Positions 2,970 to 19,457 of a stretch of DNA of 26,702 bases are shown one piece after another. The DNA lies in IMG/VR virus record IMGVR_UViG_2660238061_000004. One strand, 5' to 3'. The DNA comes from a virus. Its lineage: Duplodnaviria > Heunggongvirae > Uroviricota > Caudoviricetes. Within the stretch, counting starts at the first letter, position 1; every line of letters starts with the position of its first letter. Position numbers and translations under genes: made by a program. The notes below the pieces were generated by a model that was given only the letters and a program-made list of their open reading frames with translations, was not told where the DNA came from and did not search any database.

Positions 2970-3167
2970 ATGAGCACTAAAGCAGAATTGTTAGCGAAGA
3001 TGGATCGCATGGCAGATGAGTGGTCACGCACCACTGGCCTCAACAATGACTATGTTGAGGGCGAGCGTTACACCAAAATCAAAGACCAACTTGCAGCGCT
3101 CGGGGTGAACGCTCGCATTGATGCCGTAGAGGGTAATTCAGCTCAATTCAGGGTTTATGTAGATTGA
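2970..3167 (+). CDS. small hypothetical protein (moron inside the head module, opposite strand)
   Basis: ATG at 2970 preceded by AAAGGAG seven nt upstream; 65 aa (MSTKAELLAKMDRMADEW...); stop TGA 3165..3167; followed by a hairpin plus T-run. Confidence 0.55.
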   Translation: MSTKAELLAKMDRMADEWSRTTGLNNDYVEGERYTKIKDQLAALGVNARIDAVEGNSAQFRVYVD

Positions 3168-16299: not shown

Positions 16300-16303
16300 T
16301 GAC

Positions 16304-16498
16304 TCACACCCCCTTCACGCCAATGCCAGCAGTAAATCGCGACGGTGACCAATCGCAATATGTGTTCGACTCCGTGTGTCCAAAAATTGCTTTACAACGA
16401 TGGATATGGTGGCAATTACCACATGTTATGCCAGCCGGTAATCGCATCTTGTCGGGATCGGCTGGGTCATAATTCAACGCCAGTTTTTCGGTTGTCAT
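16304..16498 (-). CDS. small Cys/His-rich hypothetical protein
   Basis: 64-aa ORF (…GITCGNCHHIHRCKAIFGH…) with 4-nt overlaps to its neighbours. Confidence 0.4.
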   Translation of the reverse strand: MTTEKLALNYDPADPDKMRLPAGITCGNCHHIHRCKAIFGHTESNTYCDWSPSRFTAGIGVKGV

Positions 16499-16833
16499 GC
16501 TGGCATCCTCCCCACGATATCTATAACCCGACGCATAACCGCACTTCCCCGAAAATCTGCTGGTAACTCAATCAGAGGCTTACTCGAACCGTATGAGAAT
16601 CGTTGGAGATCGAAATCAATTACAGCCTTTGGGTCCCTGAACAAATCTAGACGACCGTAACGAATGAGTTCGCCGCGTTCGGCTGCTACGCGGAAATACT
16701 TCTCAGCAGTCTGACGATGCAGCGACAACATCTGTGATGCCTCGCTAACGGTTAAGCGTCCACGGATTTTCACCTCTTCGATGATCACCCGGATAAGTGC
16801 CGCCTGCTCTTCTGGTGTATTTGGTCTTGGCAT
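16495..16833 (-). CDS. hypothetical protein with putative HTH, immediately downstream of O
   Basis: 112-aa ORF; LTVSEASQMLSLHRQTAEKYF looks HTH-like; sits where P or a helicase loader would be but is too small for one. Confidence 0.45.
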   Translation of the reverse strand: MPRPNTPEEQAALIRVIIEEVKIRGRLTVSEASQMLSLHRQTAEKYFRVAAERGELIRYGRLDLFRDPKAVIDFDLQRFSYGSSKPLIELPADFRGSAVMRRVIDIVGRMPA

Positions 16834-16835
16834 GC

Positions 16836-17747
16836 TTACCCCCTGAATCCGGGTGGGATTGTTTTGTCTGGCTCAGAAATGCGGTTCACATCCCTGCCCG
16901 TTTTGCGAGCGTTGAGAGCGAACTTCGGTTTAAACAGTCCCTGGTACCCGTTGGCGATACTGGTGTTGATCACATCAACGGGGTCATGCCCAGCGTCCAG
17001 GCAAGCCTTGAGCAACTTGAATGCTTTGGTGACCGTCATTTCGGTCTTGATGGCTTTGCCAGACTGTTGGCGGTAGGCCACCCACTCACTCCAGGACACA
17101 GAATCAAGCCACTCAGGAACGGGAATCGTCAGCGGGTCAAACTTACCCTTCCCCTTTGGGGGATTAGAGGGGGTTAGATCTGTATTTATATTTGTATTTG
17201 GAAGAATGTCTTTGGTGTTCCCTGTTTTCAGGGATACCTCTCCCTGTTTTTGGGGATGGTTATCCCCGTTTTCAGGGATGATTGAAGGGGTAAAATTGCT
17301 ATCCCTGAATTCAGGGATGGTAATAACCCATGTGACAACTTCAGCAGCAGGAAACACCGCTGGACACTTCATGCAATTTGGCTTGGTATACGCCCATTTA
17401 TCCAGGCTGGTATTAATCCCTATGTATCTGGTTTGCCCAATGCGGCGCAGGATGATGATGTTCCGATAGGCAAGGCTCAACACGGCTTCAGAGACGTGTT
17501 TCACCTTCAGCGTCGTTTTATCTGCAATGAGGCTATTGGCGATGCGGTCAGAACTCTTAGACCAGCCATAGGTCAGACGAACGATAGCATTCAGCACCCG
17601 GAACTCGCGCCCGGATAGTTCGACGATACACAGGGCATCCTGAATCTGGTTGGCCAGGCGCAAATAGCCTTTCTCCAGTTCAGCCATGCTGCTCTCCTGT
17701 TTCCCCTGCTGTGTGGGGAATTTGAATATTTCAGCGGTATTTGACAT
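16836..17747 (-). CDS. replication initiation protein O-like
   Basis: N-terminal region (MSNTAEIFKFP...REFRVLNAIVRLTYGWSK...) resembles lambda O from memory; iterons lie inside the gene; start taken at the internal Met (track ORF runs to 17780). Confidence 0.8.
   Translation of the reverse strand: MSNTAEIFKFPTQQGKQESSMAELEKGYLRLANQIQDALCIVELSGREFRVLNAIVRLTYGWSKSSDRIANSLIADKTTLKVKHVSEAVLSLAYRNIIILRRIGQTRYIGINTSLDKWAYTKPNCMKCPAVFPAAEVVTWVITIPEFRDSNFTPSIIPENGDNHPQKQGEVSLKTGNTKDILPNTNINTDLTPSNPPKGKGKFDPLTIPVPEWLDSVSWSEWVAYRQQSGKAIKTEMTVTKAFKLLKACLDAGHDPVDVINTSIANGYQGLFKPKFALNARKTGRDVNRISEPDKTIPPGFRG
17178..17212. other. AT-rich tract next to the iterons (candidate unwinding element)
   Basis: gatctgtatttatatttgtatttggaagaatg immediately beside the iteron array, on the side expected for the direction of O transcription. 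Confidence 0.45.
17219..17317. repeat. origin iterons: four 16-bp palindromic repeats
   Basis: tccctgttttcaggga (17219), tccctgtttttgggga (17241), tccccgttttcaggga (17263), tccctgaattcaggga (17302); spacing 22, 22 and 39 bp; resemble lambda ori iterons. Confidence 0.7.
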
Positions 17748-17831
17748 ACTGTTCTCCGCAATTACGCACAGTTTTTGCACCTGAAAGCCGTTGGTGTTCG
17801 AGCACCGCGGCTTTCGCCATTTCTGAGCCCG

Positions 17832-18389
17832 TCATAGCGCACCACCCAGCATCGTTGTAACCATCGCCATAATGGGCGCCACAGAATCAGGTCCGTCCAG
17901 GTAGAGCTTGGCTACGATGCTCTCGCTGATTTCCTTCATCCGTTCGTGTCTGGGGGCTTTGAGGACGACAGCCTGTATCGCCTCAGCGTCTTCTTTCACC
18001 GACCTGGCGACACGAACCGCAAAGCAGTCGTGCTTAATCACGCGATCCCGGTACGCCAGCGGCAGAACCGAAATTATTACCGGCGCCAGCTGCTCGACGT
18101 TCGCCCGGTAGGCCGGTGATTTCTCGTGGTTGTCCAGCCAGCGAAACAGCTTCACGTTCCACACATCGGCGCTGCCGGTCATGTCAATGCTGTCAAGCTC
18201 GGCCTGTTCGGCAGCCTCTTTAATCGCCAGAGCGACCGCCACGCGGCCCTCTGCCGCCGCCCAGGCGCGGACGGCAGAACAGATAGCCCGGTGATCGACC
18301 GGCTGGCCTTCAGCCTCACTGTGTTGATACTGGAATTTCAGGTGCTCTGATGGCGCTCTGTTATTCTGTTGAAAAGAAAGTGTTTGCAT
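17832..18389 (-). CDS. hypothetical early-region protein in the cII position
   Basis: 185-aa ORF between the cro-like gene and O; no family recognised. Confidence 0.4.
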   Translation of the reverse strand: MQTLSFQQNNRAPSEHLKFQYQHSEAEGQPVDHRAICSAVRAWAAAEGRVAVALAIKEAAEQAELDSIDMTGSADVWNVKLFRWLDNHEKSPAYRANVEQLAPVIISVLPLAYRDRVIKHDCFAVRVARSVKEDAEAIQAVVLKAPRHERMKEISESIVAKLYLDGPDSVAPIMAMVTTMLGGAL

Positions 18390-18400
18390 TGTCAGTGCTC

Positions 18401-18619
18401 CTACTTTGGTAATCCGTCAGTGGGATTTGGATAGAGATCAGGGCGCAGCTCGTGGGGGGTTACGCCTGTCATTTTGAAAATCGGGAAGATATAGCTTGGC
18501 GGGACGATCCCTTGGTCACGATTCTTCCAATGACTTACAGACATACTCGTCACACCAAGCGCGATGCTGAGCTTTCTGGCAGAGCCAGCGGCTTTAATTG
18601 CTTTATCGAGTGCGGACAT
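18401..18619 (-). CDS. Cro-like HTH regulator
   Basis: 72 aa; HTH SARKLSIALGVTSMSVSHWKNR; AGGAGA SD; divergent from the repressor gene. Confidence 0.7.
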   Translation of the reverse strand: MSALDKAIKAAGSARKLSIALGVTSMSVSHWKNRDQGIVPPSYIFPIFKMTGVTPHELRPDLYPNPTDGLPK

Positions 18620-18648
18620 GTGCTTCTCCTGCTTATTGATAGCAGAAG

Positions 18649-18711
18649 TAAACCACAGATTTATACTTCATGCAAACTTTGGATTTATTGCGTGCATAAA
18701 CCAAATATTTA
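18649..18711. promoter_or_regulatory. right operator region: three related operator sites about 24 bp apart, overlapping divergent promoters
   Basis: TAAACCACAGATTTA (18649), AAACTTTGGATTTA (18673), TAAACCAAATATTTA (18697); TTGCGT-16 nt-TACAAT precedes the repressor ATG by about 6 nt, implying a near-leaderless transcript. Confidence 0.5.
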
Positions 18712-18721
18712 CAATGACCAT

Positions 18722-19111
18722 ATGAGAAAAGAAGAACCCAACCTCGTTCTGGTGGAGCGCCTTACTGAGATCACTGATCGCGGCGTTACCAAAGCAGACA
18801 TGGCAAGAATAGCTGGAGTCACCCCTCAGGCCGTAAACGGCTGGTTCAAAAAAGGCGTGATTAGTAAGAAATCGGCACTGGCCATAGCCGACGCTGTTGG
18901 TATTTCTGTCGCCTGGCTACTCGGTGAAGACGTTGGGGAGAAAGACGGTCTCAAACCGGACGAACAGCGTTTGCTCGAGCTCTACCGCCAGTTACCGGAA
19001 GAAGAGCAGCAGAACATGCTCCGCATTTTTGCGCTTCGCCTGAAAGAGTTAGATGAGCTGTACGAGAAGTACATGAAGGGTCGGATTCGATCGCAAGGTG
19101 AGCAAACCTAA
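18722..19111 (+). CDS. CI-like phage repressor (XRE HTH) without a peptidase domain
   Basis: 129 aa from ATG 18722; HTH MARIAGVTPQAVNGWFKKG; short C-terminal helical region; track ORF 18452..19111 has a spurious N-terminal extension overlapping cro. Confidence 0.65.
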   Translation: MRKEEPNLVLVERLTEITDRGVTKADMARIAGVTPQAVNGWFKKGVISKKSALAIADAVGISVAWLLGEDVGEKDGLKPDEQRLLELYRQLPEEEQQNMLRIFALRLKELDELYEKYMKGRIRSQGEQT

Positions 19112-19175
19112 ACCAGTAGTATCTAATTCCATGTAATAAAAATATTTCAAGATTTAATATCTTCTGGAGGATTCG

Positions 19176-19457
19176 GTGTCTAAAGAAACAACCGTCGAAC
19201 TTATGCATCTTAATGATGTAATCGAAGCGAAAAATTTCATCGAGACCAATGCTGACGGTGTCGTAACAATCGGCACACAAAATGCCGGTTACGAAGTTTA
19301 CAATTTTGTGTTCCTGAATAGCAGCCCGATCATCGGTACGGATAATGCGGATATAGTCGTCAAGGGCATGCAGCGAACCAAAGTTGTGTCTGTGACTTTA
19401 AGCAAACAAAAGGCTTATGATTTTTATCAATCCTTAAAAAGTATGTTTGAGGAATAA
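19176..19457 (+). CDS. orphan 93-aa protein, first gene of the rex-position pair
   Basis: GTG start with GGAGGA SD; AT-rich; immediately downstream of the repressor on the same strand. Confidence 0.5.
   Translation: MSKETTVELMHLNDVIEAKNFIETNADGVVTIGTQNAGYEVYNFVFLNSSPIIGTDNADIVVKGMQRTKVVSVTLSKQKAYDFYQSLKSMFEE

Follow-up and report, generated by a model that had tools for sequence, protein, structure and literature searches.

A Gifsy-type lambdoid replication origin predicted within the O gene of an Escherichia coli prophage

Analysis of a 26,702-nt stretch of viral DNA (hereafter the window), a lambdoid prophage of E. coli, revealed a segment at positions 17150–17318 that is very probably the cognate replication origin of this prophage, homologous to ori-λ and belonging to a subfamily with Gifsy-1, Gifsy-2 and SPN3UB. 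The origin is of the ordinary lambdoid type, and the Gifsy-type subfamily is defined here. Five lines of evidence support its reading as a replication origin: the position in the linker of O, the form of the iterons, the homology to ori-λ, a conservation blind to codon position, and the linkage to the N-terminal domain of O. In the literature, ori-λ is described as four 18-bp hyphenated inverted repeats plus a 39-bp region of high AT content, all inside the O gene (PMC6022878; PMC7466680). No description of an iteron origin of the Gifsy phages was found in the literature searched, and the records of Gifsy-1, Gifsy-2 and SPN3UB carry no annotation of it.

The gene enclosing the origin, its DNA-binding domain and the gene that follows are:

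16836–17747, minus strand: gene for the O-family replication initiator, 303 aa from the ATG at 17747, enclosing the origin
17394–17687, minus strand: N-terminal DNA-binding domain of O, aa 21–118 (boundaries from Pfam and NCBIfam), the presumed reader of the iterons
16495–16833, minus strand: DUF977 gene (Pfam DUF977, E=8e-14; PHROG 2391 'DNA binding protein')

The O reading frame is full length, its longest version beginning at a GTG at 17780, and matches Pfam Phage_rep_O (E = 1.3e-27), NCBIfam phage_O_Nterm (E=1.9e-26) and PHROG 678 'replication initiation O-like' (E=3e-81), with O-like PHROGs matching along its whole length; RefSeq labels 16836–17747 'replication protein'. The origin occupies codons 144–192, a stretch rich in Pro, Asn, Gly and Thr between the N-terminal domain and the C-terminal domain, whose homology (PHROG 18589) starts at aa 184. 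These codons correspond to the flexible linker that holds ori-λ in λ O (PMC6022878). Genes for a YdaS/Cro-like and a YdaT/CII-like protein lie upstream of O in the same orientation. A simple scan found no consensus σ70 promoter upstream of O, and a promoter and terminator scan of 16400–19200 gave nothing beyond shuffle expectation with a bearing on the origin; a possible transcriptional activation of the origin we infer from gene order alone. The 2.3 kb around O (16400–18700) are 100% identical in strains PSJ-22, NCTC11023 and ES7, and in PSJ-22 the prophage sits next to kch.

Within the O gene, at 17218–17318, lie four 18-bp hyphenated palindromes of the ATCCCTGAAAACAGGGAT type, here lettered in the direction of O transcription:

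17301–17318, minus strand: iteron a (distal), ATCCCTGAATTCAGGGAT, a perfect 18-bp palindrome; 16-bp core on the plus strand at 17302–17317, TCCCTGAATTCAGGGA
17262–17279, minus strand: iteron b, ATCCCTGAAAACGGGGAT; plus-strand core at 17263–17278, TCCCCGTTTTCAGGGA
17240–17257, minus strand: iteron c, ATCCCCAAAAACAGGGAG; plus-strand core at 17241–17256, TCCCTGTTTTTGGGGA
17218–17235, minus strand: iteron d, adjoining the AT-rich tract, ATCCCTGAAAACAGGGAA; plus-strand core at 17219–17234, TCCCTGTTTTCAGGGA

All four cores fit TCCCYK-N4-YRGGGA, and a flanking A and T extend them to 18-bp units. Their start-to-start spacing is 22, 22 and 39 nt on the plus strand, or 39, 22 and 22 nt in the direction of O; as in other lambdoid origins, the units stand roughly two turns of the helix apart. 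Relative to the family consensus, each iteron has at most one arm mismatch. The preliminary description of this DNA had claimed four tccctg-N4-caggga repeats within an O-like gene; they lie where it placed them, and their clustering is far beyond chance. Indeed, all seven strand-matches to the pattern TCCCYKNNNNYRGGGA in the 26.7-kb window fall in the iteron cluster (shuffles predict 0.01), as do all five matches to the 18-mer consensus with up to three mismatches (0.05 expected). The DnaA box TTWTNCACA had no match anywhere in the window.

Two further elements follow the iterons in the direction of O:

17174–17217, minus strand: conserved junction (ACACCAAAGACATT) and AT-rich tract, the presumed DNA-unwinding element
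17150–17163, minus strand: short G+C-rich palindrome, TCCCCCAAAGGGGA, just past the AT-rich tract

The sequence directly after iteron d reads ACACCAAAGACATTCTTCCAAATACAAATATAAATACAGATC. With a GC content of 22.5% compared to 52% for the window, the 40 nt at 17174–17213 are the least stable 40-mer of the O gene (nearest-neighbor ΔG of −42.8 vs. −48.0 kcal/mol for the next) and among the six least stable 40-mer clusters of the whole window (z = 3.0). The tract is A-rich on the O-sense strand and includes a GATC at 17177–17180. Its place downstream of the last iteron bears out the earlier expectation of an AT-rich stretch on the side given by O transcription, and the order along that transcription, iterons and then AT-rich tract, is the same in λ. 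At the position of the G+C-rich palindrome, a CCCC-N2-5-GGG element is present in 90 of 93 unique relatives (among the matches listed). It is kept even where the C-terminal domain of O is unrelated, and in those cases homology stops right past it. The palindrome is thus likely the right-hand edge of the conserved origin module.

Alignment to λ, which had been proposed as a check, supports the homology: the iteron/AT junction and the start of the AT-rich tract can be aligned. The λ record annotates four iterons at 39034–39118 within O, followed by an AT-rich region, and the whole of ori-λ (nt 39034–39160, within O) resembles the window's origin in having four 18-bp hyphenated inverted repeats with an internal A-tract, 20–24 nt apart, then an AT-rich tract of ~40 bp that is A-rich on the O-sense strand, all placed in the O linker. 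In λ, the iterons have sequences such as ATCCCTCAAAACGAGGGA, with GGGGGACACAAAAGACACTATTACAAAAGAAAAAAG at the junction; the alignable part of the junction is GGGGGACACAAAAGACACT in λ and GGGAACACCAAAGACATT in the window. A three-way alignment of the window, Gifsy-2 and λ has the junction, the start of the AT-rich tract and the TCCC...GGGA arms in common. The iteron cores differ, being TCCCTG-AAAA-CAGGGA in the window (16 bp, with an even dyad) and TCCCTC-AAAAC-GAGGGA in λ (17 bp). This difference fits a divergence of the DNA-binding domains, and the two O proteins are 40% identical across their N-terminal 119 aa. Also unlike ori-λ, the spacing in the window is strictly 22 nt, with one interval of 39 nt, and the C-terminus of O is DnaT-like with no P gene next to it, whereas that of λ O binds P.

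By analogy with λ, dimers of O would bind the four 18-bp palindromes through the N-terminal winged-helix domain encoded just upstream. The bound array would wrap and bend the DNA, helped by the phased A4–5 tracts within the iterons, and the resulting strain would melt the adjoining 40-bp AT-rich tract. The C-terminal part of O would then recruit the DnaB helicase via a loader. Binding, bending, melting and helicase delivery at this origin are steps that we infer from the comparison.

As the repeats lie in coding sequence, they might exist to encode a repeated peptide of the O linker, the DNA palindromes being incidental. Iterons a and b are indeed read in the same frame, as IPEFRD and IPENGD. 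However, 22 is not a multiple of three, and iterons b, c and d therefore fall in codon phases 1, 2 and 0 and are translated in three frames, as IPENGD, HPQKQGE and SLKTGN; moreover, each unit is a dyad-symmetric DNA site. Conservation was assessed by ungapped comparison of 39 unique loci that have the same layout of one plus three iterons and N-terminal domains 65–99% identical. In these 39 relatives, the region coding for the N-terminal domain showed the expected protein-level signature, with conservation of 0.95, 0.97 and 0.74 at codon positions 1, 2 and 3, respectively. In iterons b to d, third positions were not relaxed (0.94–1.00) and were as conserved as first and second ones: iteron b reached 0.96 overall (third position 0.97), iteron c 0.97 (third position 0.98) and iteron d 0.98 (its last 4 nt overlap the word used to collect the relatives). 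The AT-rich tract and junction outside that word scored 0.93. Three codon phases without third-position relaxation place the constraint on the DNA and not on the protein; codon phases and codon-position conservation together rule out the protein-repeat explanation, which we rate as extremely improbable.

It is likewise very hard to credit that the palindromes work as hairpins in RNA or DNA, whether to attenuate or to terminate the early transcript, or that some regulator besides O uses them as operators. A simple terminator scan did mark one hairpin, at 17229–17246, albeit on the strand opposite O and hence on the non-transcribed sense. The region, folded as single-stranded DNA, is also more stable than its shuffles (z = −5.6), but this fold just pairs adjacent palindromes and is uninformative. 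No Rfam family matched 16300–18800, where a search with E up to 1 returned a chance miRNA only. As for operators, the repeats follow the family of the O N-terminal domain and not the immunity and regulatory genes, which vary among carriers.

Relatives of the origin were collected by an exact scan with the 18-nt junction word GGGAACACCAAAGACATT, which returned at least 120 IMG/VR stretches; since this word derives from the origin itself, its 18 columns are invariant by construction, and close relatives are overrepresented in the sample. A one-genome-per-species collection gave 33 matches to the same word, 20 of them with iteron arrays, in Leclercia, Citrobacter, Kluyvera, Klebsiella, Enterobacter, Yokenella, Pseudescherichia, Silvania, Pantoea, Photorhabdus, Escherichia and Enterobacteriaceae bins. 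The other 13 matches had no array and were discarded as chance 18-mer matches, ~17 of which are expected in 596 Gb by our own arithmetic.

The interval between iterons a and b encloses the following spacer:

17280–17300, minus strand: spacer of the 39-nt interval, conserved in length but not in sequence

The preliminary description had taken this irregular gap for a lost or divergent repeat, a suggestion that the relatives contradict. Arrays ending in 39, 22, 22 make up 98 of ~115 unique sequences among the matches listed, Gifsy-2 included. Among the same matches, the window's own architecture (39, 22, 22; a single distal iteron) recurs in 40 of ~110 IMG/VR loci, 22, 22, 39, 22, 22 in 41 loci, and both 22, 39, 22, 22 and 22, 22, 22, 39, 22, 22 in seven loci each. 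Several of the exceptions (e.g. 61, 22; 39, 44; 22, 39, 43) conform to this scaffold once a repeat too degenerate to match the search pattern is allowed for. As the arrays recur as n iterons followed by 39, 22, 22, the putative origin is built of three parts: a distal block varying from one to four iterons, a spacer whose length is constant, and an invariant triplet beside the AT-rich tract. A hidden iteron in the gap was rejected: none of the aligned relatives has an iteron-like sequence there, and no part of the origin is less conserved than the spacer (column conservation 0.78 across 39 unique relatives). Recent loss or decay of a repeat was likewise rejected, given the fixed interval across relatives. 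Genuine decay does occur elsewhere, as is exemplified by the degenerate iteron b of Tbat2_3. In the window we find all four parts of the Gifsy-type signature, namely the consensus ATCCCYGAAAACRGGGAT, the n-39-22-22 scaffold, the junction GGGAACACCAAAGACATT and the CCCC-N2-5-GGG palindrome.

The nearest phage proteins to the window's O are those of Gifsy-1, Gifsy-2 and SPN3UB, which are 73.6% identical over the full length and have a DnaT-like tail too. Of 50,697 phage records, only those of the same three phages matched the origin well at the DNA level; they share the iteron consensus, the junction, the AT-rich tract, the G+C-rich palindrome and the 39-nt interval before the three proximal iterons. 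Differences concern the distal block and the downstream genes. Gifsy-2 has three good distal iterons and a degenerate fourth where the window has one, an expansion of 66 nt (22 codons) that makes its O protein longer; iteron a of the window aligns with the last iteron of this block. The gene order in Gifsy-2 is O, a DnaC homolog and a DUF977-like gene, whereas in the window DUF977 comes straight after O.

More distant origins share the general plan. The Stx phages 933W and P27 (six iterons) have a lambdoid layout as well, and there too the number of AT-distal iterons varies; binding to the four proximal iterons is strong, and the distal iterons are nonetheless required (PMC7466680). Unlike the window, these phages have iterons of λ-type sequence and λ-type O and P. 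In phi80 and mEp237 (gene 15), repeats stand at the same place of the O homolog with a loader gene next to it, and the first 9–10 O codons and the upstream intergenic region are nearly identical to the window, but the iteron is TTCCCGAAAACGGGAA, the period 21 nt and the partner P-like (gene 14). As a rule, the iterons of plasmids lack symmetry, bind Rep as a monomer and stand outside the rep gene, with DnaA boxes. The plasmid origins of pSC101, R6K, RK2 and P1 resemble the window's in having direct repeats of initiator sites beside an AT-rich unwinding element; the window's sites are dyad-symmetric and inside the initiator gene, and no DnaA box was found in the window.

The origin is inherited with the domain that would read it. 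Among the matches listed, the O N-terminal domain is 62–100% identical in all ~100 loci with this origin; for the C-terminal domains and the partner genes, three or more unrelated kinds occur. Thirty E. coli genomes share 80% identity with the window's O solely from codon 6 to just beyond the AT-rich tract. O families with other N-terminal domains have other repeats at the same place, as in λ, phi80/mEp237, PHB10 (TCCCGAAATCGGGA, period 21) and mEpX1 (TGTCTCGAAGTTAGAGACA, period 24). On the left side, 99.9% identity to other E. coli prophages ends at ~17716, the intergenic region and first 9–10 O codons being common to Gifsy-type and phi80-type O genes, which diverge afterwards; strain AR_0119, for instance, has the same immunity region with a phi80-type O plus P. 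Because these homology boundaries flank the segment, the N-terminal domain, iterons, AT-rich tract and palindrome travel as one unit, as is expected of an initiator and its cognate origin.

These comparisons mark the origin for a widespread but un-annotated replication module of enterobacterial prophages, carried by the Salmonella Gifsy phages and by prophages of Escherichia, Citrobacter, Leclercia, Kluyvera, Klebsiella, Enterobacter and others, and a simple signature for locating Gifsy-type origins is now at hand. To λ biology they add nothing new in principle.

How the helicase would reach this origin is less clear. The end of O resembles that of a host primosomal protein:

16839–16895, minus strand: C-terminal tail of O, RDVNRISEPDKTIPPGFRG, resembling the tail of host DnaT

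Fifteen of 19 residues (79%) are identical to aa 161–179 of E. coli DnaT, and the tail matches PDB entries 2ru8, 6aep and 9zbt_D as well as NCBIfam DnaT (E=9.6e-5). Brezellec et al. 2017 depict a C-terminal DnaT motif in proteins related to O (domain scheme, Fig. 3; PMC5509034), and the mode by which DnaT recruits DnaB/DnaC is still open in the literature (PMC13377028). In relatives, the gene downstream of the origin module is DnaC-like at 61 loci, λ-P-like at 21, DUF6475 at 10, and of other types elsewhere (among the matches listed). The last ~20 residues of O vary with this partner, reading ...RDVN.IS.PDK.IP.GFRG with DnaC-like genes and ...DFNNTDWAYGVIR with P-like ones. This covariation of O tail and loader type provides a testable hint on how adaptors of the DnaT type contact DnaC. 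E. coli DnaC and the partner protein of Gifsy-2 share 49% identity, and in the phage O–DnaC pair and the host dnaT–dnaC operon alike, 2 nt separate the upstream stop from the downstream ATG.

In the window, DUF977 starts 2 nt past the O stop, at the site where relatives have their helicase-loader gene; comparison of this junction with Gifsy-2 and GZ2408P confirmed that DUF977 occupies the place of the loader. A tblastn search of the window found neither a homolog of the Gifsy-2 DnaC-like protein nor one of λ P, and the RefSeq annotation of the identical PSJ-22 region lists no helicase loader or DnaB-type helicase. Among the matches listed, an O–DUF977 layout without a DnaC-like gene was seen in the window and only two IMG/VR loci, where the junction is identical or nearly so and which presumably represent the same prophage. 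With the DnaC-like gene absent and the DnaT-like tail kept, the loader would therefore be host DnaC or that of another prophage. The alternatives are an O that relies on host DnaC and an incomplete module, and firing of the prophage origin is uncertain because in relatives the DnaT-like tail accompanies a DnaC-like loader gene that is missing here.

The less favorable possibility is that an intact-looking origin sits in a dead module, retained through recent acquisition, in which O lacks a DnaC-like loader and cannot deliver DnaB. The association of the DnaT-like tail with a downstream DnaC-like gene at those 61 loci speaks for it, as do the missing loader homolog, the complete phi80-type O and P of the sibling prophage with the same immunity region, and the rarity of the module (3–4 of 5426 E. 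coli genomes). We nevertheless consider it rather doubtful: the O frame is full length, the iterons depart from the consensus by one arm mismatch at most, in contrast to the decayed Tbat2_3 repeat, and nothing seems to be missing from the remainder of the prophage. O could also plausibly work with the host loader, given the 49% identity of Gifsy-2 DnaC to its host counterpart and the 79% identity between the tails of O and host DnaT.

Two bolder readings of an otherwise ordinary lambdoid origin, both of which we hold to be improbable, would be that the fixed architecture reflects a two-part initiator complex unlike the λ O-some, and that the prophage is a loader-less lambdoid replicon whose O tail mimics that of DnaT and captures host DnaB–DnaC directly. 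If the loader-less reading were true, the tail common to O and DnaT would be the element that contacts DnaC.

Across the related loci sharing the Gifsy-type origin (L002–L126), the type of gene downstream of O covaried with the last ~20 residues of the initiator, in the following combinations:

DnaT-like O tail: DnaC-like genes as partner
O tail ending in '...DFNNTDWAYGVIR': lambda-P-like genes as partner
Unrelated O C-domain: DUF6475 as partner

In the same set of loci, the C-domain core (…VINTSIANGYQGLFKPKF) was common to the O types partnered by DnaC-like and by lambda-P-like genes. The O tail encoded in the window (16839–16895) shares 79% identity with the C-terminal tail of host DnaT, and in ~60 related loci (among the matches listed) a DnaC homologue directly follows an O with such a DnaT-like tail. 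In the window, a DUF977 gene (16495–16833) starts 2 nt past the O stop codon and the loader gene is absent, with no P-, DnaC- or DnaB-like genes found anywhere within the window.

Two further elements were located at the far side of the AT-rich tract of the predicted origin:

17150–17163: short G+C-rich palindrome TCCCCCAAAGGGGA, just past the AT-rich tract
17177–17180: GATC (inside AGATCT), at the distal end of the AT-rich tract

The arms of the palindrome are similar to those of the iterons, yet lie 2 bp nearer each other. Of the 93 unique relatives (among the matches listed), 90 retain a CCCC-N2-5-GGG element here, and they do so irrespective of C-terminal domain type. The GATC is likewise conserved in most relatives, including Gifsy-2, ECCRA-119 and many IMG/VR loci, and might serve as a Dam/SeqA target. 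A search of the whole window for DnaA boxes (TTWTNCACA) returned zero occurrences.

Inspection of the Flyfo siphovirus Tbat2_3 (L005) revealed a decayed repeat, ACCCCCAAGAAAGAGGAA, at the position of iteron b (locus ~2985–3006), despite which the spacing of the scaffold is retained. Iteron b of Tbat2_3 is an instance of real iteron decay within the Gifsy-type origin family.

A mosaic junction was mapped to window positions 17700–17800. Comparison of Gifsy-type O genes with those of the phi80 type, from mEp237 and E. coli AR_0119, showed the intergenic region and the first 9–10 O codons to be nearly identical, with divergence beyond. At the breakpoint lies a further palindrome, present in both the window and GZ2408P:

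17701–17720: palindrome TTCCCCACACAGCAGGGGAA

The early operon (17832–18619) carries a YdaS-like gene at the Cro position and a YdaT-like gene at the CII position. Pfam labels these families as 'toxins', and the YdaT-like gene corresponds to the PHROG 'CII-like transcriptional activator'. In other E. coli prophages, the pair occurs at 99.9% identity, attached to a different O/P module. Near its left end, the window contains ten consecutive N (unknown or masked bases; 109–118).
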